From assembly GCF_001677475.2 (NCBI RefSeq), contig NZ_CP015229.1: a stretch of 64,000 nt of DNA, one strand, 5' to 3'. The notes beneath the pieces are model-generated. The model saw only the letters and a list, made by a program, of their open reading frames with translations, made no database searches and was not told where the DNA came from. This DNA is from Escherichia coli. Its GTDB lineage: Bacteria; Pseudomonadota; Gammaproteobacteria; Enterobacterales; Enterobacteriaceae. How positions within the stretch are numbered: position 1 is the stretch's first letter; every line of letters begins with the position of its first letter. Position numbers and translations under genes: made by a program. Of this stretch, positions 23,760 to 49,555 are shown one piece after another.

Positions 23760-23955
23760 AAATTGCCCGTTTGTGAACCACTTGTTTGCAAACGGGCATG
23801 ACTCCTGACTTTTATTTCTGCCTTTTATTCCTTTTACACTTGTTTTTATGAAGCCCTTCACAGAATTGTCCTTTCACGATGCCGTCTCTATGATGATTGA
23901 TGTTAATTAACAATGCATTTACCAAAAACAAACATATAAATCACAGGAGTCGCCC

Positions 23956-25395
23956 ATGTCAGTACCCGTTCAACATCCTATGTATATTGATGGACAGTTT
24001 GTTACCTGGCGTGGAGACGCATGGATTGATGTGGTAAACCCTGCTACTGAGGCTGTCATTTCCCGCATTCCCGATGGTCAGGCCGAGGATGCCCGTAAGG
24101 CAATCGATGCAGCAGAACGTGCACAACCAGAATGGGAAGCGTTGCCTGCTATTGAACGCGCCAGTTGGTTGCGCAAAATCTCCGCCGGGATCCGGGAACG
24201 TGCCAGTGAAATCAGTGCGCTGATTGTCGAAGAAGGGGGCAAGATCCAGCAGCTGGCTGAAGTTGAAGTGGCTTTTACTGCGGACTATATCGATTATATG
24301 GCGGAGTGGGCACGCCGTTATGAAGGCGAGATTATTCAAAGCGATCGTCCAGGAGAAAATATTCTTCTGTTTAAACGTGCGCTTGGCGTGACTACCGGCA
24401 TTCTGCCGTGGAACTTCCCGTTCTTCCTCATTGCACGCAAAATGGCTCCCGCTCTTTTGACCGGTAATACCATCGTCATTAAACCCAGTGAATTTACGCC
24501 AAACAATGCGATTGCATTCGCCAAAATCGTCGATGAAATAGGCCTTCCGCGCGGCGTGTTTAACCTTGTACTGGGGCGTGGTGAAACCGTTGGGCAAGAA
24601 CTGGCGGGTAACCCAAAGGTCGCAATGGTCAGTATGACAGGCAGCGTCTCTGCAGGTGAGAAGATCATGGCGACTGCGGCGAAAAACATCACCAAAGTGT
24701 GTCTGGAATTGGGTGGTAAAGCACCGGCTATCGTAATGGACGATGCCGATCTTGAACTGGCAGTCAAAGCCATCGTTGATTCACGCGTCATTAATAGTGG
24801 GCAAGTGTGTAACTGTGCAGAACGTGTTTATGTACAGAAAGGCATTTATGATCAGTTCGTCAATCGTCTGGGTGAAGCGATGCAGGCGGTTCAATTTGGT
24901 AACCCCGCTGAACGCAACGACATTGCGATGGGGCCGTTGATTAACGCCGCGGCGCTGGAAAGGGTTGAGCAAAAAGTAGCGCGCGCAGTAGAAGAAGGGG
25001 CGAGAGTGGGGTTGGGTGGCAAAGCGGTAGAGGGGAAAGGATATTATTATCCGCCGACATTGCTGTTGGATGTTCGCCAGGAAATGTCGATTATGCATGA
25101 GGAAACCTTTGGCCCGGTTCTGCCGGTGGTCGCATTTGACACGCTGGAAGATGCTATCTCAATGGCGAATGACAGTGATTACGGCCTGACCTCATCAATC
25201 TATACCCAAAATCTGAACGTCGCGATGAAAGCCATTAAAGGGCTGAAGTTTGGTGAAACTTACATCAACCGTGAAAACTTCGAAGCTATGCAAGGCTTCC
25301 ACGCCGGATGGCGTAAATCCGGTATTGGCGGCGCAGATGGTAAACATGGCCTGCATGAATATCTGCAGACCCAGGTGGTTTATTTACAGTCGTAA
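23956..25395 (+). CDS. aldA: Lactaldehyde dehydrogenase (NAD-dependent aldehyde dehydrogenase)
   Basis: Track ORF, 479 aa; ALDH catalytic motifs ELGGKAP and VCNCAERVY. Confidence 0.95.
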   Translation: MSVPVQHPMYIDGQFVTWRGDAWIDVVNPATEAVISRIPDGQAEDARKAIDAAERAQPEWEALPAIERASWLRKISAGIRERASEISALIVEEGGKIQQLAEVEVAFTADYIDYMAEWARRYEGEIIQSDRPGENILLFKRALGVTTGILPWNFPFFLIARKMAPALLTGNTIVIKPSEFTPNNAIAFAKIVDEIGLPRGVFNLVLGRGETVGQELAGNPKVAMVSMTGSVSAGEKIMATAAKNITKVCLELGGKAPAIVMDDADLELAVKAIVDSRVINSGQVCNCAERVYVQKGIYDQFVNRLGEAMQAVQFGNPAERNDIAMGPLINAAALERVEQKVARAVEEGARVGLGGKAVEGKGYYYPPTLLLDVRQEMSIMHEETFGPVLPVVAFDTLEDAISMANDSDYGLTSSIYTQNLNVAMKAIKGLKFGETYINRENFEAMQGFHAGWRKSGIGGADGKHGLHEYLQTQVVYLQS

Positions 25396-25405
25396 TGAGT
25401 GGAAG

Positions 25406-25429
25406 AGGCGGAGGTTTTTTCCTCCGCCT
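25406..25429. terminator. Bidirectional terminator between convergent aldA and gapC
   Basis: Stem AGGCGGAGG/CCTCCGCCT with T6 loop. Confidence 0.7.
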
Positions 25430-25436
25430 GTGTGCG

Positions 25437-26438
25437 TCAGAGTTTAGCGAATTTTTCGAGGGTGCGAATGAGCTGTGTGACGAAGCCATATTCGTTATCG
25501 TACCAGGCGACCGTTTTCACCAGTTGTAAATCGCCCACGGCGGTAATTTCCGTTTGCGTGGCATCAAACACCGAACCGAAATGGCTGCCAATGATATCGG
25601 AAGAGACTATTTCTTCATCGGTATAACCAAATGACTCGTTATTGTTTGTCGCCTTTTTAAGCGCGTTGTTCACCTCTTCGGCAGTCACTTTTTTTCCGAG
25701 AATCGACACCAGTTCAGTGACCGAACCTGTTTTCACCGGCACGCGTTGCGCATGACCTTTCAGTTTGCCGCTCAGTTCCGGGATCACCAGACCAATGGCT
25801 TTTGCCGCCCCCGTAGTGTGGGGAATGATATTTTCTGCCGCTGCGCGTGAAGCACGTAAATCTTTACCACGCGGGCCATCAACCAGTGACTGGGTGCCAG
25901 TGTAGGCATGAATGGTCGTCATCGTGCCGACTTCTATCCCGAAACTGTCATGCAAGGCTTTGGCCATCGGCGCAAGGCAGTTAGTGGTGCATGACGCCAC
26001 GGAAACAATAGTGTCGTTGCCATCCAGAGTGTCGTCATTGACGTTATAAACGATGGTTTTCATTTCACCGGCAGGGGCGGAAATCAACACCTTCTTCGCG
26101 CCAGCATCAAGATGTGCCTGCGATTTCTCGGCGGAGGTATAAAAGCCAGTACATTCGACAATGATTTCTGCACCTTTCGCTTTCCACGGAATATTTTTAG
26201 CCTCTTTTTCGGCGTAAACCGCGATGCTTTTTCCATCAACGATAAGTGAATCTTCCGTAAAATCAACGCTCCAGGGGAACGGTCCGTAGTTTGAATCATG
26301 TTTCAGCAGGTAGGCGAGAATTTTTGGGGAAGTGAGATCATTAATAGCGACAATGTCTATGTTGCTTTTGACTTCAAGTAATCGACGCAACACCAGTCGA
26401 CCGATACGACCAAAACCGTTAATACCAACTTTACTCAT
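25437..26438 (-). CDS. gapC: Glyceraldehyde-3-phosphate dehydrogenase (GapC-type), intact ORF
   Basis: Track ORF, 333 aa uninterrupted; GAPDH motifs INGFGRIGR and active-site SCTTNCLAP. Confidence 0.9.
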
Positions 26439-26626
26439 GGTCTTCTCCTGTCAGGAACGTTCGGATGAAAATTGATCCTTTCCAGGCTTAGACCAGGATG
26501 GCGGGATGGGCAATCTACATTCTTGCCGTGAAACGTAACGTACTGAAAATGGGTGAACAATATTTAATGAAATTTTAAGAAAAGCTCGTTATGTTAACAG
26601 CAAATTGTTTTAAAGCAGGAAATGTT

Positions 26627-27157
26627 ATGGAAAATAAATACTCTAGGTTACAAATCAGCATTCACTGGCTGGTCTTTTTGCTGGTTATCGCAGCGTATTG
26701 CGCAATGGAGTTTCGTGGTTTCTTCCCACGTAGCGATCGGCCGCTCATCAACATGATTCATGTTTCCTGTGGCATCACAATTCTCGTGCTGATGATGGTT
26801 CGTCTTTTGTTAAGGCTGAAATACCCAACCCCGCCGATTATACCTAAGCCAAAACCGATGATGACGGGACTGGCGCATTTGGGACATTTGGTGATCTATC
26901 TCCTGTTTATTGCGCTGCCAGTGATTGGTTTGGTGATGATGTATAACCGGGGTAACCCGTGGTTTGCGTTTGGTATAACGATGCCTTATGCATCAGAGGC
27001 CAATTTCGAACGGGTTGATAGCTTAAAGTCGTGGCATGAAACGCTGGCGAATCTGGGATACTTTGTCATCGGGTTGCACGCTGCGGCTGCACTGGCACAC
27101 CACTATTTCTGGAAGGACAACACACTTCTACGCATGATGCCGCGTAAACGTTCCTGA
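26627..27157 (+). CDS. cybB: Cytochrome b561
   Basis: Start at ATG 26627 (MENKYSRLQISIHW) with AGGA RBS, inside track ORF 26591..27157; 176 aa; membrane haem protein. Confidence 0.9.
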   Translation: MENKYSRLQISIHWLVFLLVIAAYCAMEFRGFFPRSDRPLINMIHVSCGITILVLMMVRLLLRLKYPTPPIIPKPKPMMTGLAHLGHLVIYLLFIALPVIGLVMMYNRGNPWFAFGITMPYASEANFERVDSLKSWHETLANLGYFVIGLHAAAALAHHYFWKDNTLLRMMPRKRS

Positions 27158-27166
27158 AGGATATTT

Positions 27167-27231
27167 AAAGAAAACGCCTGTACTAAAACCGACCCGTGGT
27201 ACAGGCGAAGAATACGGGCCTACATCGGAAG
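27167..27231 (-). ncRNA. rydC: Small regulatory RNA RydC
   Basis: Minus-strand sequence CTTCCGATGTAGGCCCGTATTCTTCGCCTGTACCACGGGTCGGTTTTAGTACAGGCGTTTTCTTT matches remembered RydC; in the cybB-ydcA intergenic region; terminator hairpin plus U-tract. Confidence 0.75.
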
Positions 27232-27401
27232 CGCCTATTATATTTATTTGTATGACAAATAAAACCATAATCCTTGTCCATACGTCCATCTGGCTTATCT
27301 TTAATCAATTCACCCGATCTTTGATCTCATCAACGGTATCAAAATAAACCAGCGTATAACGTTAAAATCAAACATAAGATTCGATAAATCATGGAGGTTA
27401 T

Positions 27402-27575
27402 ATGAAAAAACTGGCATTTATCTTGGTTATGGGAACGCTTGTTTCCTTTTATGCCGATGCCGGGCGCAAACCCTGTTCTGGTTCGAAAGGGGGGATCTCA
27501 CACTGTACGGCAGGCGGCAAATTTGTTTGTAATGATGGTTCTATTAGTGCATCGAAAAAAACATGCACTAACTGA
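27402..27575 (+). CDS. ydcA: Small secreted protein YdcA (57 aa)
   Basis: Not in ORF track (under 60 aa); ATG 27402 with GGAGG RBS; translated by hand: [57 protein letters not shown]. Confidence 0.8.
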
Positions 27576-27646
27576 AGTGTAAAAGGGGTGCCATGAGAAA
27601 ATGAATCCGCTAGTCAGATGCGCGGGGAAAATTCCCGCGCTTGCCC

Positions 27647-27843
<197 letters not shown>

Positions 27844-27854
<11 letters not shown>

Positions 27855-27900
27855 TCGTTGGCCTCGGTTGATAGAAATATCGGTCGGGGCCTTCGTCTTT
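27844..27900 (+). ncRNA. sokB: Predicted SokB antisense RNA (antitoxin of hokB); boundaries approximate
   Basis: Plus-strand promoter-like TTGCCG (27808-27813), 17-bp spacer, TAAGAT (27831-27836) inside mokB, transcribing antisense across the mokB start; imperfect hairpin then U-rich tract near 27859-27900. Confidence 0.4.
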
Positions 27901-28128
27901 CTGATTCCCGGTTAGCCTGAAAACAGAAAGTCTCAGGCACCCGTGAGCATCCTATGTGGTTTCCTTAGGGACGAAAATAATCACCTGACGAAATTGCGTG
28001 CTGTTTTCCAGAATTTTTCGTTATTCGGTTTAGCCAGTTTAATCATTCGTTACTCTCTTCATTCCAATGGCATTAATCTTCTCTGCAATAATTGTTGTAA
28101 AAATGTGACGCAAAGAGGTTTTTGGTCG

Positions 28129-28155
28129 TAAGTAATTACCGTCAAGTGCCGATGA
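28129..28155 (+). promoter_or_regulatory. Candidate sigma-28 (FliA) promoter for trg
   Basis: TAAGTAAT, 11-nt spacer, GCCGATGA; the -10 matches the sigma-28 consensus GCCGATAA at 7/8, the -35 is weak; about 40 bp upstream of trg. Confidence 0.4.
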
Positions 28156-28194
28156 CTTTCTATCAGGAGTAAACCTGGAAGAGAGACAACGGTA

Positions 28195-29835
28195 ATGAAT
28201 ACAACTCCCTCACAGCGATTAGGTTTTTTGCATCACATCAGGCTGGTTCCGTTATTTGCCTGCATTCTTGGCGGTATCTTAGTTCTATTCGCATTAAGTT
28301 CAGCCCTGGCCGGCTATTTCCTTTGGCAGGCCGATCGCGATCAGCGTGATGTTACTGCGGAGATTGAGATTCGGACCGGGTTAGCGAACAGTTCAGATTT
28401 TTTGCGTTCAGCCCGGATCAATATGATTCAGGCCGGTGCTGCGAGTCGTATTGCGGAAATGGAAGCAATGAAGCGAAATATTGCGCAAGCCGAATCGGAG
28501 ATTAAACAGTCGCAGCAAGGTTATCGTGCTTATCAGAAGAGGTCGGTGAAAACACCTGCTGATGAAGCCCTCGACACTGAATTAAATCAACGCTTCCAGG
28601 CTTATATCACGGGTATGCAACCTATGTTGAAATATGCCAAAAATGGCATGTTTGAAGCGATTATCAATCATGAAAGTGAGCAGATCCGACCGCTGGATAA
28701 TGCTTATACCGATATTTTGAACAAAGCCGTTAAGATACGTAGCACCAGAGCCAACCAACTGGCGGAACTGGCCCATCAGCGCACCCGCCTGGGTGGGATG
28801 TTCATGATTGGCGCGTTTGTGCTTGCCCTGGTCATGACGCTGATAACATTTATAGTGCTACGTCGGATCGTCATTCGTCCACTGCAACATGCCGCACAAC
28901 GGATTGAAAAAATCGCCAGTGGCGATTTGACGATGAATGATGAACCGGCGGGTCGTAATGAAATCGGTCGCTTAAGTCGTCATTTACAGCAAATGCAGCA
29001 TTCATTGGGGATGACAGTAGGGACCGTTCGACAGGGCGCGGAAGAGATTTATCGTGGCACCAGCGAAATTTCCGCTGGCAATGCGGACCTGTCATCTCGC
29101 ACCGAAGAACAAGCGTCGGCAATTGAACAAACTGCCGCCAGCATGGAGCAACTCACTGCGACGGTGAAACAGAATGCGGATAACGCGCATCATGCCAGCC
29201 AACTGGCGCAAAAGGCTTCTATTAAAGCCAACGATGGCGGGCAGACGGTTTCCGGTGTAGTAAAAACGATGGGGGCTATCTCCACGAGTTCGAAGAAAAT
29301 TTCTGAGATCACCGCCGTCATCAACAGTATTGCTTTCCAGACGAATATTCTGGCACTGAATGCTGCCGTTGAAGCCGCGCGAGCGGGTGAGCAAGGGCGT
29401 GGATTTGCCGTTGTCGCCAGCGAAGTACGGACACTCGCAAGCCGCAGCGCCCAGGCGGCGAAAGAGATTGAAGGCTTGATCAGTGAATCAGTTAGGTTAA
29501 TTGACCTGGGGTCGGATGAGGTGGCAACGGCAGGGAAAACCATGAGCACTATTGTTGATGCCGTCGCGAGTGTCACACATATCATGCAGGAAATCGCCGC
29601 CGCCTCGGATGAACAAAGCAGAGGCATAACACAGATTAGCCAGGCGATTTCTGAAATGGATAAGGTGACGCAACAGAATGCTTCTCTGGTAGAAGAGGCC
29701 TCAGCGGCGGCGGTGTCCCTTGAAGAACAGGCGGCACGATTAACTGAGGCGGTGGACGTATTCCGTCTGAACAAACATTCTGTGTCGGCAGATCCTCGCG
29801 GAGCTGGTGAACCAGTTAGTTTCGCTACGGTGTGA
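28195..29835 (+). CDS. trg: Methyl-accepting chemotaxis protein III (ribose/galactose sensor)
   Basis: Track ORF, 546 aa; two TM segments, HAMP, and the conserved MCP signalling domain. Confidence 0.95.
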
Positions 29836-29872
29836 AAATGTTAAAGGGGGGATCGACAGATCCCTTCACCTT

Positions 29873-30796
29873 TCAGAACGGCATTGATTTTCGAATAGCG
29901 TTAATCATCAACTGGCAACCAGAAGAGAACGTCGCATCTACGCGGGTCAGTATTCCAATCGGTTCGCCTGCACCATGTCCCGGAACAGGCAGGGCCACCA
30001 GAGTGGCATGACGCAGGTCGTCTTTTACAGCGCCAGAAGGGACAAACCACACGTAGTCGTATTCAACCGTAAGTTGACGAGATAGCGAAGCAGACAGCGT
30101 TTCGATACAACCCGAAGGAATTTTACATCCCTGGCTCTGCACTAATGCATCTGAATGCTGGCGTGGCGCAGTGCCTTCTGGTGATACAACGACCGGCCAT
30201 TCCAGCACCCGGCTTAGCGTTACGTTCTCCTGAAGTAGCGGGTGATTAGGGCGGACAACCAGCTTCAGCGATTCAAGAAACAGCAGTTCGTAATTAAGCC
30301 CGGTCATCAGTTCAGGATCTGACATCCGACCAATGCCGATATCGATTTCCCCGGTTTTTAAACCCGCCAGAATCATAGGGTTACTCATTGTCGCAACTTG
30401 CAAGGTCGTCTCTTTTTGTTGCTGATGAAACTGACCTATAACCGAAGGTAATATCCCCAGTGCCGCAGTAGGTAGTGCACCAACCCTGACGACATCATTA
30501 TTAAGACCTTCTTTACGATGAAGCGACTGTCCGGCAGTGTTGATGGCGTCAAGAACTCTGACTGCATGCGTTAAAAATTGCTCGCCGGGTAAGGTAAGTT
30601 GCGCCCCCTGACGACCACGCTCAAACAAGCGAGCGCCCGTCAGCTGCTCCAGTTCATTCAATGTCTTAGAGAGCGCAGGTTGACTCAAATTAAGGGTTTC
30701 AGCCGCGCGCCCCAAAGTTCCTTGTTGTGCGACAGCTACGAATGTATGAAGGTGGCGCAAACGGATGCGCTGACTAAACAGACTATTTTTTTCCAT
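29873..30796 (-). CDS. ydcI: LysR-family transcriptional regulator (307 aa)
   Basis: Start at ATG 30796 (MEKNSLFSQRIRLRHLHTFVAVAQQG) inside track ORF 29873..30937; N-terminal HTH. Confidence 0.85.
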   Translation of the reverse strand: MEKNSLFSQRIRLRHLHTFVAVAQQGTLGRAAETLNLSQPALSKTLNELEQLTGARLFERGRQGAQLTLPGEQFLTHAVRVLDAINTAGQSLHRKEGLNNDVVRVGALPTAALGILPSVIGQFHQQQKETTLQVATMSNPMILAGLKTGEIDIGIGRMSDPELMTGLNYELLFLESLKLVVRPNHPLLQENVTLSRVLEWPVVVSPEGTAPRQHSDALVQSQGCKIPSGCIETLSASLSRQLTVEYDYVWFVPSGAVKDDLRHATLVALPVPGHGAGEPIGILTRVDATFSSGCQLMINAIRKSMPF

Positions 30797-31012
30797 AAGC
30801 GATGTTAAAAACGAAGCGGTGTCGCTGACAAGTGAAGTTGTTTGATTATGATAACTTGATTGCAAAATATTATTAACAATTAAAGCAATCATGTTACAAC
30901 AAAATGGATAATATTGATGTTTTCGCGGCGAGATCACAGTTTGTAAATTCTTCCCGCCGGAGTGAATGCGGTTACCTACACTCCAGATTACTGACCACTG
31001 GAGGCAGATACT

Positions 31013-32356
31013 ATGGCGAACAGCATCACGGCGGATGAGATTCGGGAACAGTTTTCGCAGGTAATGTCAGCCATGTACCAGCAAGAAGTTCCGCAGTACG
31101 GCACGCTGCTGGAACTGGTAGCTGATGTGAATCTGGCTGTGCTGGAAAACAATCCTCAACTGCACGAAAAAATGGTAAATGCAGACGAGCTGGCGCGACT
31201 GAATGTTGAACGTCATGGGGCGATTCGCGTTGGGACTGCACAAGAGCTTGCTACTCTTCGGCGGATGTTTGCCATTATGGGGATGTACCCGGTGAGCTAT
31301 TACGATCTCTCGCAGGCGGGGGTGCCGGTACATTCGACAGCATTTCGGCCTATTGATGATGCTTCTCTGGCGCGTAATCCCTTCCGCGTTTTTACTTCAT
31401 TACTCCGACTTGAGCTTATCGAGAACGAAATTTTGCGCCAGAAAGCGGCGGAGATTCTGCGTCAGCGCGATATCTTCACCCCACGTTGTCGACAACTGTT
31501 AGAGGAATATGAGCAGCGGGGCGGTTTTAACGAAACACAGGCACAGGAGTTTGTGCAGGAAGCCCTGGAAACGTTTCGCTGGCACCAGTCAGCAACGGTA
31601 GATGAAGAAACCTATCGCGCCTTGCACAACGAACATCGGTTGATTGCTGATGTGGTCTGTTTTCCTGGATGCCATATCAACCACCTGACGCCACGTACGC
31701 TGGATATTGACCGGGTGCAGTCGATGATGCCTGAATGCGGAATTGAACCCAAAATTCTGATCGAGGGGCCGCCGCGCCGCGAGGTGCCGATTTTACTACG
31801 CCAGACCAGCTTTAAAGCACTGGAAGAGACGGTGTTGTTTGCGGGGCAGAAACAGGGCACGCATACCGCGCGCTTTGGTGAAATAGAGCAGCGTGGCGTG
31901 GCATTAACGCCGAAAGGGCGACAACTGTATGATGATCTTCTGTGTAACGCTGGAACCGGGCAGGATAATCTCACTCACCAAATGCATTTACAGGAAACCT
32001 TCCGCACTTTTCCTGACAGTGAGTTTTTAATGCGTCAGCAAGGGCTGGCATGGTTCCGGTACCGTCTGACGCCTTCGGGTGAGGCGCATCGTCAGGCGAT
32101 TCATCCTGGAGACGATCCACAGCCCTTAATTGAACGTGGTTGGGTAGTGGCGCAACCCATCACCTATGAAGATTTCTTGCCCGTTAGCGCGGCGGGGATC
32201 TTCCAGTCAAATCTGGGTAATGAAACGCAGACACGCAGTCACGGTAATGCCAGTCGCGAAGCATTTGAGCAGGCGTTGGGTTGTCCGGTTTTGAATGAGT
32301 TCCAGCTTTATCAGGAAGCGGAAGAACGCAGTAAACGTCGCTGTGGTTTGCTTTAA
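31013..32356 (+). CDS. ydcJ: DUF1338-family protein YdcJ
   Basis: Track ORF, 447 aa; matches remembered YdcJ; divergent from ydcI. Confidence 0.85.
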   Translation: MANSITADEIREQFSQVMSAMYQQEVPQYGTLLELVADVNLAVLENNPQLHEKMVNADELARLNVERHGAIRVGTAQELATLRRMFAIMGMYPVSYYDLSQAGVPVHSTAFRPIDDASLARNPFRVFTSLLRLELIENEILRQKAAEILRQRDIFTPRCRQLLEEYEQRGGFNETQAQEFVQEALETFRWHQSATVDEETYRALHNEHRLIADVVCFPGCHINHLTPRTLDIDRVQSMMPECGIEPKILIEGPPRREVPILLRQTSFKALEETVLFAGQKQGTHTARFGEIEQRGVALTPKGRQLYDDLLCNAGTGQDNLTHQMHLQETFRTFPDSEFLMRQQGLAWFRYRLTPSGEAHRQAIHPGDDPQPLIERGWVVAQPITYEDFLPVSAAGIFQSNLGNETQTRSHGNASREAFEQALGCPVLNEFQLYQEAEERSKRRCGLL

Positions 32357-32580
32357 ATTCTGACCATCCGCCTTTGCAAAAATTTGCCTGATTTTACAAT
32401 CGAATCAGGCTCATCCCATCGACATAAAAAAATTGCCAATTTATGCATATTCTCTGAGTTCAACAATTGGATTATTAATAAATATTGTCTAGAGTGAGCG
32501 GTCATAAATAAGCACTTTCTTGCCGCTGAAAACGACCAGCGCGGGACCATTCACAACACCAGAAGGACTCACTTTCAGGT

Positions 32581-34236
32581 ATGGATCGTAGACGATTTAT
32601 TAAAGGTTCAATGGCTATGGCCGCCGTGTGCGGTACCAGCGGCATTGCTTCTCTTTTTTCTCAGGCGGCATTCGCGGCAGATTCTGATATTGCCGACGGG
32701 CAAACTCAGCGTTTTGACTTCTCCATTCTACAGTCAATGGCGCACGACTTAGCGCAAACAGCGTGGCGTGGTGCGCCGCGTCCGTTACCTGACACGCTGG
32801 CGACAATGACGCCGCAGGCTTATAACAGTATTCAATACGACGCCGAAAAATCGCTCTGGCATAACGTTGAGATCCGTCAACTGGACGCTCAGTTCTTCCA
32901 TATGGGAATGGGATTCCGTCGCCGCGTTCGTATGTTTTCTGTTGATCCAGCAACACATCTGGCGCGTGAAATTCACTTTCGCCCGGAGTTGTTCAAATAC
33001 AACGATGCAGGTGTTGATACCAAACAATTAGAAGGGCAAAGCGATCTCGGCTTTGCCGGTTTTCGCGTGTTTAAAGCCCCCGAACTGGCGCGCCGTGATG
33101 TAGTATCATTCCTCGGCGCGAGTTATTTCCGCGCCGTTGATGATACATATCAATACGGTTTGTCCGCCCGCGGCCTGGCGATCGACACTTACACCGACAG
33201 TAAAGAAGAGTTCCCCGACTTTACCGCCTTCTGGTTTGATACGGTAAAACCGGGGGCAACCACCTTTACCGTTTATGCGTTGCTCGATAGCGCCAGCATT
33301 ACTGGTGCCTATAAGTTCACTATCCATTGTGAGAAAAGTCAGGTGATTATGGATGTGGAAAATCACCTGTATGCGCGCAAAGACATTAAACAGCTGGGCA
33401 TTGCGCCGATGACCAGCATGTTCAGCTGCGGTACTAATGAACGTCGGATGTGCGATACAATTCATCCGCAAATTCATGACTCTGATCGTCTGTCCATGTG
33501 GCGGGGCAACGGCGAGTGGATTTGCCGTCCGCTGAATAATCCGCAAAAATTGCAGTTCAATGCTTACACCGACAACAACCCGAAAGGGTTTGGTTTATTG
33601 CAACTGGATCGTGATTTCTCCCATTATCAGGACATTATGGGCTGGTATAACAAACGCCCAAGTCTGTGGGTGGAACCGCGTAACAAGTGGGGTAAGGGCA
33701 CCATCGGCCTGATGGAAATCCCAACAACGGGCGAAACGCTGGATAACATTGTCTGCTTCTGGCAGCCAGAAAAAGCTGTAAAAGCGGGTGATGAGTTTGC
33801 ATTCCAGTATCGTCTGTACTGGAGTGCGCAACCGCCTGTTCATTGCCCATTAGCGCGCGTTATGGCAACGCGTACCGGCATGGGCGGTTTCCCGGAAGGT
33901 TGGGCGCCAGGTGAACACTATCCCGAAAAATGGGCGCGTCGTTTTGCCGTCGATTTCGTTGGTGGTGATCTGAAAGCTGCCGCACCAAAAGGCATTGAGC
34001 CGGTGATTACGCTTTCCAGTGGGGAAGCGAAGCAAATCGAAATTCTCTATATTGAACCCATTGATGGTTATCGTATTCAGTTTGACTGGTATCCGACGTC
34101 GGACTCCACTGATCCGGTCGATATGCGGATGTATCTGCGTTGTCAGGGCGACGCTATCAGTGAAACATGGCTGTATCAGTATTTCCCGCCAGCGCCGGAT
34201 AAACGTCAGTATGTTGACGACCGCGTGATGAGTTAA
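32581..34236 (+). CDS. opgD: Glucans biosynthesis protein D (periplasmic, Tat signal)
   Basis: Track ORF, 551 aa; N-terminal twin-arginine motif [10 protein letters not shown]. Confidence 0.9.
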
Positions 34237-34375
34237 TTGTTTTTTCTTCGGCACCTTCTTCGGGAGGTGCTGTCTGGTTAAACACGATCCCGCTCGCATT
34301 TTTCCCTAAGTTAAATGAGTAATCTGATGGTGTGTATTTCAGATACAACTTGTCAGCCACTAACAGGGAGTGCGT

Positions 34376-34600
34376 ATGTTTCCAGAATACCGAGATTTAA
34401 TATCCCGTCTGAAAAACGAAAATCCTCGCTTTATGTCCTTGTTCGATAAACACAATAAACTTGATCATGAAATTGCCAGAAAGGAAGGTTCCGACGGTCG
34501 AGGTTACAATGCGGAAGTGGTCCGCATGAAAAAACAAAAGCTACAGTTAAAAGATGAGATGCTCAAAATCCTGCAGCAGGAGAGCGTCAAAGAGGTGTAA
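34376..34600 (+). CDS. ydcH: DUF465-family small protein YdcH (74 aa)
   Basis: Track ORF 34370..34600; start at ATG 34376 (MFPEYRDLISRLK). Confidence 0.8.
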   Translation: MFPEYRDLISRLKNENPRFMSLFDKHNKLDHEIARKEGSDGRGYNAEVVRMKKQKLQLKDEMLKILQQESVKEV

Positions 34601-34608
34601 ACTTTCCT

Positions 34609-34633
34609 AAGCCGCCAGCCAGGCGGCTTTTTT
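34609..34633 (+). terminator. Rho-independent terminator after ydcH
   Basis: Stem AAGCCGCC/GGCGGCTT with loop AGCC, then T6. Confidence 0.75.
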
Positions 34634-34662
34634 AACAACTGCATGGATTGACTGGAGATAAG

Positions 34663-35202
34663 ATGACTGAAACGATAAAAGTAAGCGAATCACTTGAATT
34701 ACATGCTGTTGCGGAAAGTCATGTCACACCTCTTTATCAGTTAATCTGTAAAAATAAAACCTGGTTACAGCAGTCGCTAAACTGGCCGCAGTTCGTTCAG
34801 AGTGAAGAGGACACGCGAAAAACGGTGCAGGGTAATGTGATGTTGCATCAACGCGGCTATGCCAAAATGTTCATGATTTTCAAAGAAGATGAACTTATCG
34901 GCGTTATCTCGTTTAATCGAATTGAACCACTGAATAAAACCGCTGAAATCGGCTACTGGCTGGACGAATCTCATCAGGGGCAGGGGATCATTTCTCAGGC
35001 GTTGCAGGCACTGATTCATCATTACGCCCAGTCTGGTGAACTTAGACGCTTCGTGATCAAATGTCGGGTGGACAATCCGCAAAGCAACCAGGTCGCTTTG
35101 CGCAATGGTTTTATTCTTGAAGGTTGCCTGAAACAGGCTGAGTTCCTGAATGATGCCTATGATGATGTGAACTTATACGCGCGTATTATCGATTCACAAT
35201 AA
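34663..35202 (+). CDS. rimL: Ribosomal-protein-L7/L12 serine acetyltransferase (GNAT)
   Basis: Start at ATG 34663 ([14 protein letters not shown]) inside track ORF 34648..35202; 179 aa. Confidence 0.85.
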
Positions 35203-36174
35203 CCCTGCCAGCGGCGTTCGCGTAATGCGCTCCTCGCCGTTAATGACTTTTGGACCACGGACATGAACCGTGTCGCCATCAAAGGCTTCAACGACGGCGT
35301 GGTCGGTTAACTCCACATGGTTTTCAATTATCACCGCATCTGTAATACGGCTCTTACCTTGTATTACAACGTGCTCGTCGAGCAGAATCGGTCCGCCACG
35401 TACCACGGCATTTCCGCCAATCAAGACATGATGTTTTAACACACAATTACCTTCCACAATGGCATATTCCGCCACCTGCGAACTGTAATGAATCGTCGGA
35501 ATGGCATCTTCTTCTATGCCAGCTTTCACCTGCGCGTGACCGTAGACTTTAGCGCAATCGCATAGCCATACGTTGTTCTCTTCATTACCTTCAACACTGG
35601 CAAAATCAAAAACTTCGGCGCGATGTTCAATAAAAGCATACCGGACGACGGCATCGCCATAAATTTGTGCCTGGTGGACAATACGCGAGGCGCTAACCCT
35701 CGCGCGATCATAAATTTGTAGCAGGAGTTGATGGTCGGGCGTTAAGCCTTGTGCGGCGACGATCATAGAATGTTGATCAATTAAGGCGTGACCAAATATT
35801 CTACATTGACCGCAAACTAATGAGTCACGAATGGTGACGCTGTCACTTATATATGCACCCTGGCTGATTTCACTATTATCGATCCAGACATTATCCGTTG
35901 CGTATACCTCTCCCCACAGCACGCTTATGCCGGTGATACGCGTATTCCCGGAAATCACCGCTCCGCCGAACGCAATAGCATTCTGGTCGTAAATCCAGCA
36001 ATTTCCTTCCTGTGCTAACACCGTTTCGCAATCGATCCAGCCGCCAGCGGTTCCTGCTATCACATCGTTAAAATCGCTCATGGCGATAATCTGCCGTAAT
36101 AACACACTTTTTTTAGTGCCATCATCCTGATAACTAAAGGCTCGCTGTTCTTCACTTAGACGATATTTGCGCAT
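35194..36174 (-). CDS. ydcK: Hexapeptide-repeat (left-handed beta-helix) protein YdcK
   Basis: Track ORF, 326 aa; 3' end overlaps rimL by 9 bp (convergent). Confidence 0.85.
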
Positions 36175-36297
36175 AGCGTTTTCCCACAGGTGACTTACTA
36201 TAACCGTAGCAAATTCTGCGGCTCTGGCTATGCTCGAGAAAATTCCATAAAATGCATTTCAAATATACTTTATAAATTAAACAAAATGAGTAAGAAG

Positions 36298-37290
36298 ATG
36301 CAGAGCGATAAAGTGCTCAATTTGCCGGCAGGCTACTTTGGTATTGTGTTGGGGACGATAGGGATGGGATTTGCCTGGCGCTATGCCAGCCAGGTTTGGC
36401 AGGTCAGCCACTGGTTAGGGGATGGGCTGGTGATTCTGGCGATGATCATCTGGGGATTATTAACTAGCGCATTTATTACCCGACTCATACGCTTTCCGCA
36501 TAGCGTGCTGGCAGAAGTGCGCCATCCAGTGATGAGCAGTTTTGTGAGTTTGTTTCCGGCAACGACGATGCTGGTGGCGATTGGTTTTGTTCCGTGGTTT
36601 CGCCCACTGGCGGTGTGCCTGTTCAGTTTTGGTGTCGTGGTTCAGTTGGCTTATGCCGCCTGGCAAACTGCGGGATTATGGCGCGGATCTCACCCTGAAG
36701 AAGCTACCACGCCTGGACTGTATCTGCCGACAGTTGCCAACAACTTTATCAGCGCAATGGCCTGTGGTGCGTTGGGCTACACCGACGCCGGTCTGGTGTT
36801 TTTAGGCGCAGGCGTTTTCTCATGGCTAAGCCTTGAACCGGTGATCTTGCAGCGTCTGCGCAGTTCGGGAGAATTACCCACGGCACTGCGGACATCACTC
36901 GGCATTCAGCTCGCTCCTGCGCTGGTGGCCTGTAGTGCCTGGCTGAGCGTCAACGGCGGCGAGGGTGACACGCTGGCGAAAATGCTTTTCGGTTATGGAC
37001 TGCTGCAACTGCTGTTTATGCTACGTCTGATGCCATGGTATCTCTCCCAGCCATTTAATGCTTCATTCTGGAGTTTCTCGTTCGGCGTATCTGCACTGGC
37101 AACCACCGGTTTGCATCTGGGGAGTGGCAGCGATAATGGATTTTTCCATACGCTGGCGGTGCCGCTGTTTATCTTTACCAATTTTATTATTGCAATACTG
37201 CTCATCCGTACTTTTGCGCTTCTGATGCAGGGAAAATTGTTAGTCAGAACCGAGCGCGCCGTTTTAATGAAAGCAGAGGACAAAGAATGA
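36298..37290 (+). CDS. tehA: Tellurite resistance protein TehA (C4-dicarboxylate transporter/SLAC1 family)
   Basis: Start at ATG 36298 ([19 protein letters not shown]) inside track ORF 36190..37290; 330 aa; polytopic membrane protein. Confidence 0.9.
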
Positions 37291-37880
37291 TCATTCGTGA
37301 CGAAAACTATTTTACTGATAAATATGAATTAACCCGTACACACTCTGAAGTACTGGAAGCGGTGAAAGTGGTTAAACCGGGTAAAACGCTGGATCTGGGC
37401 TGTGGCAATGGTCGTAACAGTCTTTACCTGGCAGCCAATGGTTATGATGTTGACGCATGGGATAAAAATGCCATGAGTATCGCCAACGTCGAGCGCATTA
37501 AATCCATTGAAAATCTGGATAATTTACACACCCGGGTCGTTGATCTGAATAACCTCACATTTGATGGACAGTACGATTTTATTCTTTCGACTGTGGTGCT
37601 GATGTTCCTTGAGGCTAAAACCATCCCAGGGCTGATTGCCAATATGCAACGTTGCACGAAACCTGGCGGTTACAACCTGATTGTGGCGGCGATGGATACC
37701 GCCGATTATCCATGTACCGTCGGCTTCCCGTTTGCCTTCAAAGAGGGAGAATTACGTCGATATTACGAAGGCTGGGAGAGGGTGAAATACAATGAAGACG
37801 TCGGCGAGCTGCACCGCACCGACGCCAACGGTAATCGTATTAAACTGCGTTTCGCCACGATGCTGGCACGTAAAAAATGA
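37287..37880 (+). CDS. tehB: Tellurite methyltransferase TehB (SAM-dependent)
   Basis: Track ORF, 197 aa; methyltransferase motif [11 protein letters not shown]; overlaps tehA stop. Confidence 0.9.
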
Positions 37881-38182
37881 TCCGGTAAGAACAAAGCGCG
37901 TGAAAATTCCCCACGCTGAGATGGTTTACTGTTCTTCTTTTCGGTAAGCATATTTTTTATTGAAGGGATGTGAAATTAATCACAGTAGTCGAAGTTTTTT
38001 AGCAGCTTAACATACTGAAATTTAACTACTGATGATTGACTTAGCCCCTTTTTCGGCATTGACTATATCGTCTGAAAAGGGGCTAAAAAATTTATTTTCA
38101 CCAACACTTTTTTTGCCACAACACGAAGCGGCGCTTTTTGCTATAACTTAAAAAGTAATATAATCATCTCAGGAAACTATTC

Positions 38183-38851
38183 ATGCGTACCACATCATTT
38201 GCGAAAGTTGCAGCTTTATGCGGCTTGTTGGCTCTGTCTGGTTGTGCCTCTAAAATCACCCAGCCAGATAAATATTCTGGTTTTTTAAACAATTACTCTG
38301 ATTTAAAAGAAACAACCTCAGCAACAGGTAAACCTGTTTTACGTTGGGTAGACCCGAGTTTTGATCAAAGCAAATATGACAGCATTGTCTGGAACCCAAT
38401 CACTTATTATCCGGTACCAAAACCTTCTACCCAGGTAGGGCAGAAAGTTCTGGATAAAATTTTGAACTATACAAACACCGAAATGAAAGAAGCGATAGCG
38501 CAGCGTAAACCACTGGTTACCACCGCTGGGCCGCGTAGTCTGATTTTCCGTGGGGCCATTACCGGTGTAGATACCAGCAAAGAAGGGCTGCAATTCTATG
38601 AAGTGGTTCCTGTTGCATTAGTGGTTGCAGGGACGCAAATGGCTACAGGCCACCGTACCATGGATACTCGCCTCTATTTTGAAGGTGAACTGATTGATGC
38701 AGCGACGAATAAACCGGTTATCAAAGTCGTTCGTCAGGGCGAAGGTAAAGACCTGAATAACGAAAGTACGCCAATGGCTTTCGAAAATATTAAACAAGTT
38801 ATTGATGACATGGCGACCGATGCCACCATGTTTGACGTTAACAAAAAGTAG
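38183..38851 (+). CDS. ydcL: Lipoprotein YdcL
   Basis: Track ORF, 222 aa; lipobox LALSG-C. Confidence 0.85.
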   Translation: MRTTSFAKVAALCGLLALSGCASKITQPDKYSGFLNNYSDLKETTSATGKPVLRWVDPSFDQSKYDSIVWNPITYYPVPKPSTQVGQKVLDKILNYTNTEMKEAIAQRKPLVTTAGPRSLIFRGAITGVDTSKEGLQFYEVVPVALVVAGTQMATGHRTMDTRLYFEGELIDAATNKPVIKVVRQGEGKDLNNESTPMAFENIKQVIDDMATDATMFDVNKK

Positions 38852-38859
38852 TTCCAGAC

Positions 38860-38887
38860 GCGCCGTCGTTAGATGGCGCTTTTTATT
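38860..38887. terminator. Bidirectional terminator between convergent ydcL and ydcO
   Basis: 8-bp stem GCGCCGTC/GATGGCGC (one G-U pair) then T-run. Confidence 0.55.
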
Positions 38888-40058
38888 ATCGGTTTCTGTC
38901 AGCGATTAAATTCAACACCACGTAACAAACGCCTCCGGCAATTAAACCCCAAAACGCAGAACCAATCCCGACCAGTGTCAATCCACTTGCCGTTACCAGA
39001 AATGCCACCACCGCCGCGTCGCGCTCACGCTCATTATGCAGCGCCTGATACAAACTGCCGCCAATGGTACTTAACAGCGCCAGACCTGCCAGCATCTGGA
39101 TCCAACTTACGGGCAGGGCAGCCATCATCCCGGTAATGGCACTACCAAACAGACCTGCGAGCAAATAGAAAATGCCGGCAACGGCAGCTGCCAGCCAACG
39201 TTGATCTTTATCCGGATGCGCTTCCGGGCTTTGGCAAATAGCCGCGGTGATTGCCGCAATACCGACGGAATAAACGCCGAAAGGGGAAAAAACCAGTGCC
39301 AGCAATCCAGTAAATACAATTAATGGCGAAACAGGAGCTGAATATCCGGCTGCTTTCATTGCTGCGATACCCGGTGCGTTTTGCGATGCCATCGTCACCA
39401 GAAAAAGGGGGAGTGCAACGCTCAGGCTGTGAGCAAACGAAAAATCAGGGGTAATATAAGTGGGGAGAACGGGTTTAAAGACAATATCAGTTGTGACAAC
39501 GTCACCTTGCGCGATAACGATCACGATCCCAATAATCATCGCGGCAATTACCGCATAGCGCGGCGCAACGGCCCTGGTTGCCAGCCATACCAGCAACATA
39601 CTGCCACACAACGTAAATTGACCATCCAGACTGGCAAACGCCTGTAAACCAAAGCGTAATAAAATCCCGGCAAGCATTGCCGCCGCAAGCGAGTGTGGAA
39701 TAATGCGCATCAGACGAGCAAAGAGTCCCGTTATGCCGCAGAGGACTATTAACGCGTTGGTGACAATAAAAACGCCGATGGCTTCGTTAAGTGTTAGTCC
39801 CTGCAATCCGGTGACCAACAAAGCCGCGCCAGGCGTTGACCATGCGGTGAGAACAGGTACGCGATACCATAATGTCAGAGTCAGCGTACTGACGCCCATT
39901 GCCAGCCCCAGCGCCGTCATCCAGCCAGAGATTTGTGCAGTGGTGGCTCCGGCGACAATCGCTGCTTGCCAGATTATTGCCGCTGAACTGGCGTAGCCAA
40001 TTAATACCGCCAGAAACCCCGCCAGTAGCGTGGGTGGAGGAATAGAAAACAGACGCAT
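38886..40058 (-). CDS. ydcO: BenE-family inner-membrane transporter YdcO
   Basis: Start at ATG 40058 (MRLFSIPPPTLLAGF) inside track ORF 38886..40319; about 390 aa; highly hydrophobic. Confidence 0.8.
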   Translation of the reverse strand: MRLFSIPPPTLLAGFLAVLIGYASSAAIIWQAAIVAGATTAQISGWMTALGLAMGVSTLTLTLWYRVPVLTAWSTPGAALLVTGLQGLTLNEAIGVFIVTNALIVLCGITGLFARLMRIIPHSLAAAMLAGILLRFGLQAFASLDGQFTLCGSMLLVWLATRAVAPRYAVIAAMIIGIVIVIAQGDVVTTDIVFKPVLPTYITPDFSFAHSLSVALPLFLVTMASQNAPGIAAMKAAGYSAPVSPLIVFTGLLALVFSPFGVYSVGIAAITAAICQSPEAHPDKDQRWLAAAVAGIFYLLAGLFGSAITGMMAALPVSWIQMLAGLALLSTIGGSLYQALHNERERDAAVVAFLVTASGLTLVGIGSAFWGLIAGGVCYVVLNLIADRNR

Positions 40059-40149
40059 AGTCACCTCGTGCGTTATAACGTACAGGTACCGTAGCATTTG
40101 TCCGTTATAACGCACAAGTGATAAACTTCCGTTTTGCCGGAGGAGTCGC

Positions 40150-40686
40150 ATGGAAAATCTCGCTCGCTTTTTATCCACCACACTTAAACAACTACGCCAG
40201 CAGCGCGGCTGGAGTCTTTCGCGATTGGCAGAAGCGACGGGCGTTTCTAAAGCGATGTTAGGGCAGATTGAGCGTAATGAATCCAGCCCGACGGTCGCGA
40301 CATTATGGAAAATTGCCACCGGGTTGAATGTGCCATTTTCGACATTTATTTCTCCGCCGCAGTCCGCAACGCCTTCAGTTTATGATCCACAACAGCAGGC
40401 GATGGTGATCACTTCGCTGTTTCCTTATGATCCACAACTCTGCTTTGAACACTTCTCGATTCAGATGGCATCTGGTGCAATAAGCGAATCGACGCCCCAT
40501 GAGAAGGGGGTAATCGAACATGTCGTCGTCATTGATGGACAACTTGATCTGTGCGTTGATGGTGAATGGCAGAGCCTTAATTGTGGGGAAGGCGCTCGAT
40601 TTGCTGCAGACGCCACGCATGTCTATCGTAATCGTGGGGAGCAAATCGTACATTTTCATTCCCTCATCCATTACCCGCGCAGTTAA
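40150..40686 (+). CDS. ydcN: XRE-family HTH regulator with C-terminal cupin domain
   Basis: Track ORF, 178 aa; HTH region LSRLAEATGVSKAMLGQIERNE; divergent from ydcO. Confidence 0.85.
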   Translation: MENLARFLSTTLKQLRQQRGWSLSRLAEATGVSKAMLGQIERNESSPTVATLWKIATGLNVPFSTFISPPQSATPSVYDPQQQAMVITSLFPYDPQLCFEHFSIQMASGAISESTPHEKGVIEHVVVIDGQLDLCVDGEWQSLNCGEGARFAADATHVYRNRGEQIVHFHSLIHYPRS

Positions 40687-40758
40687 GCGGGAAAACTATT
40701 TCGCAACGTCGCGCTTGTGGCTAAAATAGCCGCCATTTTTCAGCTACTGGATAAGAAT

Positions 40759-42720
40759 GTGACCGTATCTTCTCATCGACTTGAACTGTTAAGCCCGGCA
40801 CGCGATGCCGCCATTGCCCGCGAAGCTATTTTGCACGGTGCCGATGCTGTTTATATCGGCGGCCCTGGTTTTGGTGCCCGTCATAATGCCAGTAATAGCC
40901 TGAAAGATATTGCCGAGCTGGTGCCGTTTGCCCATCGTTATGGTGCAAAAATTTTCGTCACGCTTAACACCATTCTGCATGATGATGAGCTTGAACCCGC
41001 GCAACGGCTGATTACCGACCTCTACCAGACCGGCGTCGATGCGCTGATTGTTCAGGATATGGGGATTCTGGAACTTGATATTCCGCCGATTGAACTGCAC
41101 GCCAGTACGCAGTGCGACATTCGCACGGTAGAGAAAGCGAAGTTCCTTTCTGATGTTGGCTTCACGCAGATTGTGCTGGCACGAGAGCTGAATCTTGAGC
41201 AGATCCGCGCGATTCACCAGGCCACGGACGCGACCATTGAATTCTTTATTCATGGCGCACTGTGCGTGGCCTATTCGGGTCAGTGCTACATTTCTCATGC
41301 GCAAACAGGGCGTAGCGCCAACCGTGGCGATTGCTCGCAGGCGTGCCGTTTGCCATACACATTGAAAGACGATCAGGGGCGGGTGGTTTCCTATGAAAAA
41401 CATCTGCTGTCGATGAAAGATAACGATCAGACTGCCAACCTCGGCGCGCTGATTGATGCTGGCGTACGCTCCTTCAAGATTGAAGGGCGTTACAAAGATA
41501 TGAGCTACGTGAAGAATATCACCGCCCATTATCGCCAGATGCTGGATGCCATTATTGAAGAACGTAGCGATTTGGCGCGAGCTTCATCCGGTCGTACTGA
41601 GCACTTCTTCGTACCGTCGACGGAAAAAACCTTCCATCGTGGCAGCACCGACTACTTTGTTAACGCGCGTAAAGGCGATATTGGCGCATTCGATTCACCG
41701 AAATTTATCGGCCTGCCGGTGGGTGAAGTATTGAAAGTGGCGAAAGATCATCTTGATGTTGAGGTTACCGAACCGCTGGCTAACGGCGATGGACTGAACG
41801 TAATGATTAAGCGTGAAGTCGTCGGCTTTCGTGCCAACACGGTAGAGAAAACTGGGGAAAATCAGTACCGCGTCTGGCCAAATGAGATGCCAGTGGAGCT
41901 GCACAAAATTCGCCCGCACCATCCGCTTAATCGCAACCTCGACCATAACTGGCAGCAGGCGTTGACCAAAACCTCCAGCGAACGTCGGGTGGCGGTAGAC
42001 ATTGAACTGGGCGGCTGGCAGGAACAACTGATTCTGACTCTGACCAGCGAAGAGGGCGTCAGTATCACTCATACGCTGGACGGGCAGTTCGACGAAGCGA
42101 ATAACGCCGAAAAAGCACTCCTCAATCTGAAAGAGGGATTGTCGAAGCTTGGGCAAACCCTCTATTACGCCCGCGATGTGCAAATTAATTTGCCGGGGGC
42201 GCTGTTTGTACCAAACAGTCTGTTAAACCAGTTCCGCCGTGAAGCTGCCGACATGCTGGATGCTGCACGTCTTGCCAGTTACCAGCGGGGCAGCCGTAAA
42301 CCGGTTGCTGATCCTGCGCCGGTTTATCCGCAAACGCATCTGAGTTTCCTCGCGAACGTATACAACCAGAAAGCGCGTGAATTTTATCATCGCTATGGTG
42401 TGCAGCTGATTGACGCGGCGTATGAGGCACATGAAGAGAAGGGCGAAGTCCCGGTGATGATCACCAAGCATTGTCTGCGCTTTGCCTTTAATCTGTGCCC
42501 GAAACAGGCGAAAGGCAATATCAAAAGCTGGAAGGCGACGCCAATGCAACTGGTTAACGGCGATGAAGTGTTAACGCTGAAATTTGATTGCCGCCCATGC
42601 GAGATGCACGTCATTGGCAAAATCAAAAATCACATACTGAAAATGCCGTTACCGGGAAGCGTAGTGGCATCCGTAAGTCCGGATGAGCTGCTGAAAACAT
42701 TGCCGAAGCGAAAAGGGTAA
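40759..42720 (+). CDS. rlhA: Peptidase U32-family protein (YdcP/RlhA)
   Basis: Track ORF 40717..42720; start placed at GTG 40759 to match remembered 653 aa (ATG 40717 is the alternative); Cys-rich C-terminus. Confidence 0.8.
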   Translation: MTVSSHRLELLSPARDAAIAREAILHGADAVYIGGPGFGARHNASNSLKDIAELVPFAHRYGAKIFVTLNTILHDDELEPAQRLITDLYQTGVDALIVQDMGILELDIPPIELHASTQCDIRTVEKAKFLSDVGFTQIVLARELNLEQIRAIHQATDATIEFFIHGALCVAYSGQCYISHAQTGRSANRGDCSQACRLPYTLKDDQGRVVSYEKHLLSMKDNDQTANLGALIDAGVRSFKIEGRYKDMSYVKNITAHYRQMLDAIIEERSDLARASSGRTEHFFVPSTEKTFHRGSTDYFVNARKGDIGAFDSPKFIGLPVGEVLKVAKDHLDVEVTEPLANGDGLNVMIKREVVGFRANTVEKTGENQYRVWPNEMPVELHKIRPHHPLNRNLDHNWQQALTKTSSERRVAVDIELGGWQEQLILTLTSEEGVSITHTLDGQFDEANNAEKALLNLKEGLSKLGQTLYYARDVQINLPGALFVPNSLLNQFRREAADMLDAARLASYQRGSRKPVADPAPVYPQTHLSFLANVYNQKAREFYHRYGVQLIDAAYEAHEEKGEVPVMITKHCLRFAFNLCPKQAKGNIKSWKATPMQLVNGDEVLTLKFDCRPCEMHVIGKIKNHILKMPLPGSVVASVSPDELLKTLPKRKG

Positions 42721-42768
42721 AACGCCAGTTTTCTGGTTACTCACCACTCATTGAATCTGCATGATATT

Positions 42769-42804
42769 GCCTGCCGGGTAAGGCGTCATGCCGCATCCGG
42801 CATC
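42769..42804. repeat. REP (repetitive extragenic palindromic) element
   Basis: Reverse complement GCCGGATGCGGCATGACGCCTTACCCGGCAGG resembles the remembered REP consensus; between ydcP and yncJ. Confidence 0.6.
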
Positions 42805-42811
42805 AAACGAC

Positions 42812-43042
42812 TCAACGTTGTCCTGCTTCTGGTTTGCGCGATTTTTGCCAGTAAAAATGCTCGCGCAAACCTTCCGCCGACTCTTCCGCCACAGCACGCA
42901 ATTCATCGCTGTCCGCTTCATGACGTAGCTGATGATCCACATTCTTTACCCACATAAATTCATGTCCTTTGTGCCCTGCCATGAGTTGTCCTGAGAACAG
43001 CGCACACGTTAATAAGACAACCGATAACGCCTTCGTAAACAT
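42812..43042 (-). CDS. yncJ: Small secreted protein YncJ (DUF2554)
   Basis: Track ORF, 76 aa; N-terminal signal peptide. Confidence 0.8.
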   Translation of the reverse strand: MFTKALSVVLLTCALFSGQLMAGHKGHEFMWVKNVDHQLRHEADSDELRAVAEESAEGLREHFYWQKSRKPEAGQR

Positions 43043-43263
43043 CCCGCCACCTTTTTCTCACCTTTTGCCGCTATGATGCCGATCGTTTCTTGAGGTTCTT
43101 ATTCAGTTTTGCAAATTAGCGCAAAGAAATTCTGGAATCTTCCTTCCTGATTTTGCATTGCATTCTGCCGTTGCGGCGATTAAGTGCTATTTTCGAGCAA
43201 ATTACACACGGAGGTAAACACTAATGTTTACTTTGTTGATATACTCAGCGGCAGGGAGGCGAT

Positions 43264-43440
43264 GTGAAACAAAGCGAGTTCAGACGTTGGCTCGAATCTC
43301 AGGGCGTCGATGTAGCGAATGGCAGCAACCATTTAAAACTAAGGTTTCACGGGAGGCGCAGTGTCATGCCGCGTCACCCCAGCGAAGAGATTAAAGAATC
43401 ATTGCGTCAAGCCATTCTGAAACTACTCAGTTTGAGTTAA
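43264..43440 (+). CDS. hicA: Type II toxin HicA (mRNA interferase), 58 aa
   Basis: Not in ORF track; GTG start 43264, hand-translated (M)KQSEFRRWLESQGVDVANGSNHLKLRFHGRRSVMPRHPSEEIKESLRQAILKLLSLS. Confidence 0.8.
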   Translation: MKQSEFRRWLESQGVDVANGSNHLKLRFHGRRSVMPRHPSEEIKESLRQAILKLLSLS

Positions 43441-43464
43441 TCGCCCATTAAAAAGGTTAATGAC

Positions 43465-43902
<438 letters not shown>

Positions 43903-43980
43903 TAACAGTTAATGAAAAGTTGTCATTTTTAACAACTGATATAGACTGCCGAATCACCTGCACATAATAACGATTCGATA

Positions 43981-46777: not shown

Positions 46778-46794
46778 CTTCGCTGGGGTGCTTT

Positions 46795-49534: not shown

Positions 49535-49555
49535 CCACTGATACAGGAATATGCT

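Follow-up and report, generated by a model that had tools for sequence, protein, structure and literature searches.

The closest described system is RydC of Escherichia coli K-12 and Salmonella. The published structure of RydC is an H-type pseudoknot (PMC4337610), and mutation of two of its residues, G37 and G39, destabilises the RNA in vivo (PMC4337610). On cfa mRNA, RydC has been found to protect from RNase E and to antagonise Rho, with higher Cfa levels and more acid resistance as the outcome (PMC6755755, PMC11340327), and weaker repression by RydC of yejABEF, csgD, pheA and trpE has also been published. Transcription of rydC is repressed by the GntR-family protein YieP, which was found genetically (PMC11340327). 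When yieP was deleted, rydC'-lacZ expression rose by a factor of 20 in E. coli and of 7.5 in Salmonella; only in the yieP deletion strain was RydC detectable (PMC11340327). In 2020 rydC and ydcA had been picked as candidate YieP targets in a study that defined the ChIP-exo motif atTTGTaTGAcaAAT (PMC7642389); one earlier YieP ChIP-exo regulon does not list rydC. A YieP site at rydC is named in neither the text of PMC7642389 nor that of PMC11340327, the two texts contain no EMSA or footprint for it, and the supplement of PMC7642389 yielded no coordinates of a ChIP-exo peak at rydC or ydcA.

The DNA analysed here (the window) is a 64,000-nucleotide stretch of E. coli. The minus strand of positions 27167..27231 reads CUUCCGAUGUAGGCCCGUAUUCUUCGCCUGUACCACGGGUCGGUUUUAGUACAGGCGUUUUCUUU. 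When the whole window was scanned with Rfam 15, two matches exceeded the gathering score, one of them to RydC: RF00505 matched 27168..27231 on the minus strand with 90.5 bits (gathering score 48; E value 1.6e-16), and the match covered the full model, positions 1-64 of 64. By BLAST, the rydC gene of K-12 MG1655 (b4597, 65 nt) fell exactly on 27167..27231 with 98.46% identity, i.e. 64 of 65 bases, and in the pairwise alignment the sole mismatch within the RNA was at position 13 (window position 27219). The region is thus almost certainly the rydC gene, a well-known E. coli sRNA at its usual locus. A reading made earlier from the sequence only had described this minus strand as RydC almost base for base, which is accurate, and had placed it on the right strand with both ends correct to the base. 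The two checks that it had proposed, alignment with the annotated K-12 gene and a covariance-model search, gave a single mismatch outside the seed and a full-length match far above the threshold, respectively. Its placing of the RNA in the cybB-ydcA spacer was borne out by the K-12 annotation, by K-12 features mapped onto the window and by NCBIfam equivalogs of the flanking genes. The gene and its neighbours are as follows.

27167..27231, minus strand: rydC, gene of a 65-nt Hfq-dependent sRNA (RF00505 at 90.5 bits and b4597 at 64/65)
27231 and 27167, minus strand: transcription start (C) and 3' end of rydC, respectively, on the basis of the K-12 annotation
26627..27157, plus strand: cybB, cytochrome b561 (NCBIfam equivalog, 377.6 bits; K-12 cybB maps here at 97.2%)
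27402..27575, plus strand: ydcA (NCBIfam equivalog, 143.8 bits; K-12 ydcA maps here at 97.7%)

cybB is convergent with rydC, its stop codon lying 10 nt from the rydC 3' end, and ydcA is divergent; 170 bp separate the rydC start from the ydcA ATG. The gene order aldA-gapC-cybB-rydC-ydcA-hokB-trg matches that of K-12. Of 5426 complete E. coli genomes, 5410 carry rydC, each as a single copy; five of these 5410 copies are on records labelled as plasmid rather than chromosome. Apart from the ncRNA of K-12 MG1655, no annotated rydC feature was found in E. coli RefSeq records among the matches listed, and the RefSeq record of strain SK1144 carries no annotated feature in the cybB-ydcA region. Because RefSeq annotation of the non-K-12 genomes examined lacks rydC, a covariance-model pass is needed for its recovery. 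RydC being a well-characterised enterobacterial sRNA, the importance of the locus beyond correct annotation is slight.

Several observations were made on the surrounding DNA. The Rfam family 'sok' (RF01794) matches 27791..27942 on the minus strand (109.7 bits), with the 3' end of the match entering the hokB start codon (AUG, 27796..27794). K-12 sokB maps with 100% identity to 27844..27900 on the opposite, plus strand, and the RF01794 match is therefore the hokB/mokB mRNA leader and not the Sok antisense RNA. hokB, mokB and sokB are 100% identical to K-12, the flanking genes 97-98%. The K-12 small protein gene yncP maps to 27601..27669 on the plus strand (95.7%), where the hokB 3' end, on the other strand, overlaps it. 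gapC (25437..26438, minus strand), which is annotated as a pseudogene in K-12, encodes here an intact 333-aa type I glyceraldehyde-3-phosphate dehydrogenase (TIGR01534, 447 bits). Segments 23900..29900 and 30000..54999 have a best identity of 97.7-97.9% to any of the 5426 complete E. coli genomes, with many top matches about equally distant. These values indicate that the lineage of the window is not closely represented among the 5426 genomes, and the source strain seems to belong to none of the well-sampled E. coli lineages. Compared with E. albertii (86%) and representatives of two other Escherichia species (83-89%), E. coli is much the closest to the window.

The elements of the folded RNA were located on the minus strand.

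27214..27221, minus strand: 5' strand of pseudoknot helix 1, nt 11-18 (Rfam consensus structure; pair counts)
27190..27197, minus strand: 3' strand of pseudoknot helix 1, nt 35-42, with G37 and G39 (Rfam structure; pair counts)
27199..27207, minus strand: 5' strand of helix 2, the terminator stem, nt 25-33 (100% paired, four compensatory pairs)
27175..27183, minus strand: 3' strand of helix 2, the terminator stem, nt 49-57 (pair counts; folding energy)
27167..27174, minus strand: 3' U-rich tail UUUUCUUU, nt 58-65 (termination signal; Hfq proximal-face site, PMC4337610)
27208..27209, minus strand: U23/U24 of loop I (invariant in eight homologs; Hfq rim contact, PMC4337610)
27185..27186, minus strand: U46/U47 of loop II (present in the sequence; Hfq rim contact, PMC4337610)

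All residues found experimentally to be important (G37, G39, U23/U24, U46/U47 and the U-tail; PMC4337610) are thus present. The pseudoknot was assessed by comparing eight homologs: the window, K-12, E. albertii, representatives of two divergent Escherichia species, Salmonella enterica subsp. arizonae, Citrobacter sp. R56 and C. amalonaticus. The six besides the window and K-12 were obtained by scanning 298 Gb of contigs with the pattern CTTCCGATGTNNNCCCGT (15 specified bases), which returned at least 120 loci, with six real RydC sequences among the matches listed; the query pattern was too loose, and a yield of six homologs is enough for a pair count and too few for a broad survey. Pairs were counted over both helices, taking nt 11-18 against 35-42 for helix 1 and nt 25-33 against 49-57 for helix 2. 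Standard pairs occupied 98.5% of the pseudoknot cells, as compared to 26-43% when the 3' partners were slid by one to three columns. In helix 2 every cell was paired (100%), and four of the nine pairs were changed on both sides, that is, in a compensatory manner. Helix 1 was paired in 96.9% of cells and is almost invariant, so that its support comes from pairing and not from covariation; at its outermost pair (11-42), E. coli has A-G where the others have A-U.

The terminator hairpin and U-tract that the sequence-only reading had noted at the 3' end are both there: helix 2 (nt 25-33 with 49-57) is a 9-bp hairpin with a folding energy of -13.8 kcal/mol in isolation, and it is followed directly by UUUUCUUU, as is characteristic of a Rho-independent terminator. 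A generic terminator scan did not call helix 2, whose loop is longer than the 8-nt limit of the scan. At 27192..27206 (minus strand) the 5' strand of helix 2 can pair with the 3' strand of helix 1 in an alternative 6-bp hairpin (GCCUGU/ACGGGU). It was this small hairpin, and not helix 2, that the scan flagged as terminator-like, and it occurs in the nested minimum free energy fold. Nested minimum free energy folding of the RNA gave an insignificant z-score (-0.98). The method cannot represent a pseudoknot, and since the published structure is of the H type, this score is uninformative.

Taken with the published structure, these data indicate that the 65-nt RNA folds as an H-type pseudoknot with helix 1 formed by nt 12-18/35-41 and helix 2 by nt 25-33/49-57, the latter together with the UUUUCUUU tail doubling as the Rho-independent terminator. 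Such a fold leaves the first 10-12 nt single-stranded as a seed, which Hfq, whose binding is known from the literature, would present while holding the U-tail and both UU steps, U23/U24 and U46/U47.

27220..27231, minus strand: 5' seed region, nt 1-12, CUUCCGAUGUAG (identical to K-12; invariant in 8/8 homologs)

The seed does not vary across the three genera represented among the eight homologs (Escherichia, Salmonella and Citrobacter). Its pairing with cfa was calculated using the K-12 leader, as the strain's own cfa lies outside the window. In the best duplex between RydC nt 1-14 and this leader, nt 3-13 paired with -109..-99 at -16.8 kcal/mol. The pairing spans the RNase E cut between G-100 and A-99 published in PMC6755755 and includes G-101 of cfa, which was used there in compensatory mutagenesis. 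Of 1000 shuffled seeds, 20 paired with the cfa leader as well as the real one. Taken by itself the energy statistic is weak, since the 64-kb window holds at least 12 sites that pair with the seed as well as cfa; complementarity to the seed is thus unspecific on its own. What makes the cfa pairing persuasive is its coincidence with the experimentally mapped site. A search of the K-12 cfa leader for an exact Watson-Crick complement of the seed found none, which is explained by a G-U pair in the real duplex; the duplex calculation recovered the published site. The main known action of RydC, probably in this strain too, is pairing of the seed with the long leader of cfa mRNA near -109..-99. According to the literature, this pairing masks the RNase E site and counteracts Rho, which would lead to more cyclopropane fatty acid synthase.

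A cfa-like site was also noticed in trg at 28856..28868 on the plus strand (TGCTACGTCGGAT), one base off the cfa site and conserved in K-12 trg. It was judged to be a chance match because the window contains at least 12 sites that pair equally well or better, and because no paper linking RydC to trg was found in the literature.

Two elements were recognised upstream of the transcription start.

27237..27242, minus strand: -10 hexamer TATAAT (-11..-6), perfect consensus, invariant in eight homologs
27246..27260, no strand assigned: candidate YieP operator, the perfect inverted repeat ATTTGT-CAT-ACAAAT (plus strand ATTTGTATGACAAAT; rydC -29..-15)

A promoter scan found no two-hexamer sigma-70 site and no recognisable -35 element upstream of rydC. 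This is not evidence against a promoter, as it agrees with the published description, in which the rydC promoter likewise lacks a -35 (PMC11340327). Among the eight homologs, conservation of the promoter across genera is confined to TATAAT and to the block ATTT[G/A]TCATACAAAT at -29..-15, and it collapses upstream of about -33. This block is the candidate operator, which lies in the spacer that separates rydC from the divergent ydcA. It matches the YieP motif at 15 of 15 positions and is the only perfect match in the 64-kb window, where a perfect 15-mer would be expected about 1e-4 times by chance (128,000 positions on both strands / 4^15). The K-12 ChIP-exo peaks from which the motif was built possibly include the rydC locus, so that the match is less than fully independent. 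Except at one G/A site, the box is invariant among the eight homologs, in Escherichia, Salmonella and Citrobacter alike. We infer from these sequence features that the palindrome at -29..-15 is probably the YieP operator. YieP, which according to the literature normally holds rydC transcription off, would then sit on ATTTGT-NNN-ACAAAT, occlude the promoter spacer and block RNA polymerase. The box might also account for the lack of a -35 element in this promoter. A perfect consensus box shared across genera provides a concrete operator candidate for a repression that has so far been shown only genetically.

The one base that distinguishes this RNA from that of K-12 is located in pseudoknot helix 1.

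27219, minus strand: RNA position 13, G here and A in K-12, pairing with U40

The A13G change turns an A-U pair into a G-U pair (G13-U40) and thus keeps the pair. The predicted energy of the isolated helix 1 rises from -10.5 kcal/mol with A13 to -9.9 kcal/mol with G13, a cost of about 0.6 kcal/mol. Identical copies of the window's 64-nt sequence occur in 1241 of the 5426 complete E. coli genomes, and 4064 have the exact K-12 version; RydC of E. albertii also has G13. It could be argued that this is a decayed or functionally altered rydC allele, given that position 13 is in helix 1, the disruption of which (G37C/G39C) destabilises RydC in vivo (PMC4337610), and that G13 permits an alternative nested fold: the best nested fold with G13 has a predicted energy of -16.1 kcal/mol and differs from the K-12 fold at -14.4 kcal/mol. 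We consider this very improbable, because G13-U40 is still a standard pair whose presence costs the isolated helix only 0.6 kcal/mol, because G13 is fixed in 1241 complete E. coli genomes and in E. albertii, and because the promoter, the seed, the Hfq contacts and the terminator are all intact. The 1241 genomes, E. albertii and the preserved pair show that A13G is a common natural allele; it is harmless and there is no sign of decay. Folding predictions suggest that G13 may shift the folding equilibrium to some extent.

The sequence-only reading had named mismatches in the seed or pseudoknot region as what would speak against it. The seed is free of mismatches; in helix 1 of the pseudoknot, A13G is formally a mismatch of this kind. 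This yardstick was too strict, because A13G keeps the pair, is a common allele and leaves the covariance score far above the threshold, and a common pair-preserving mismatch in a pseudoknot should not be taken for decay. Judged by these sequence features, the strain probably expresses a functional RydC.

A second natural polymorphism is in the YieP palindrome, where window position 27256 shows a G/A difference from K-12. The K-12 box has one mismatch (ATTTATCATACAAAT on the rydC strand), whereas the box of the window is a perfect palindrome. A 30-nt stretch holding the perfect box was found unchanged in 3969 complete genomes, and its one-mismatch K-12 counterpart in 1237. The polymorphism is independent of A13G, as O157:H7 strain PV15-279 combines the perfect box with A13. 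That both polymorphisms are functional is a speculative idea to which we give little credence. If it were true, E. coli lineages would differ in the tightness of RydC repression and in RydC stability, and the K-12 laboratory model would under-represent the strength of repression in most strains.

Two further readings of the locus deny that there is an RNA gene of its own, and the evidence leaves next to no room for either. In the first, the hairpin and U-tract do no more than terminate transcription of the convergent cybB. The stop codon of this gene (27157) is indeed only 10 nt from the rydC 3' end, and a bidirectional stem is possible in principle. On the plus strand, however, the stem is followed by AAGAAUAC and not by a run of U, and no plus-strand terminator was found here by the scan. 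Moreover, the Rfam match spans the full RNA, and an invariant 12-nt seed, an equally invariant, well-spaced TATAAT and a conserved YieP box would be useless to a cybB terminator. Equally negligible is a small protein encoded by one of two minus-strand ORFs in the mechanical ORF list (53 aa, 27128..27289, or 41 aa, 27183..27308), since the mapped transcription start (27231) is downstream of both start codons, homolog lengths of 63, 64 and 66 nt (-1 and +2 nt) break any reading frame, variation tracks base-pair covariation and not codon positions, and conservation between genera is absent upstream of about -33. Nothing contradicts the identification as rydC. The finding is correct but ordinary, being a known sRNA at a known locus with one common harmless base change; RydC at this locus is already known, and the explicit operator candidate is the only, modest, addition.

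Compared with K-12 RydC (b4597, RF00505), the locus has in common the cybB-rydC-ydcA arrangement, the strand logic, the length and 64 of 65 bases, and also the seed, the pseudoknot, the Hfq-contact uridines, the terminator and the -10 box; it differs by A13G in helix 1 (A-U to G-U). RydC of Salmonella enterica, for which the crystal structure with Hfq was determined (PMC4337610), is identical to the window over nt 1-18 and has both helices, the UU steps, the U-tail, the YieP box and TATAAT as in the window, whereas each of its loops is 1 nt longer and helix 2 shows three compensatory pair differences. ArrS and CpxQ are other sRNAs that act on the long cfa 5' UTR via the same RNase E site (PMC6755755). 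They are unrelated to RydC in sequence and locus and neither of them has a pseudoknot; CpxQ represses cfa, whereas RydC activates it. With respect to the known YieP operators (PMC7642389), the candidate box is likewise palindromic, agrees with the motif at 15/15 positions and overlaps the core promoter, where a repressor would be expected to bind; the former were identified by ChIP-exo, whereas the box at rydC was deduced from its base sequence.
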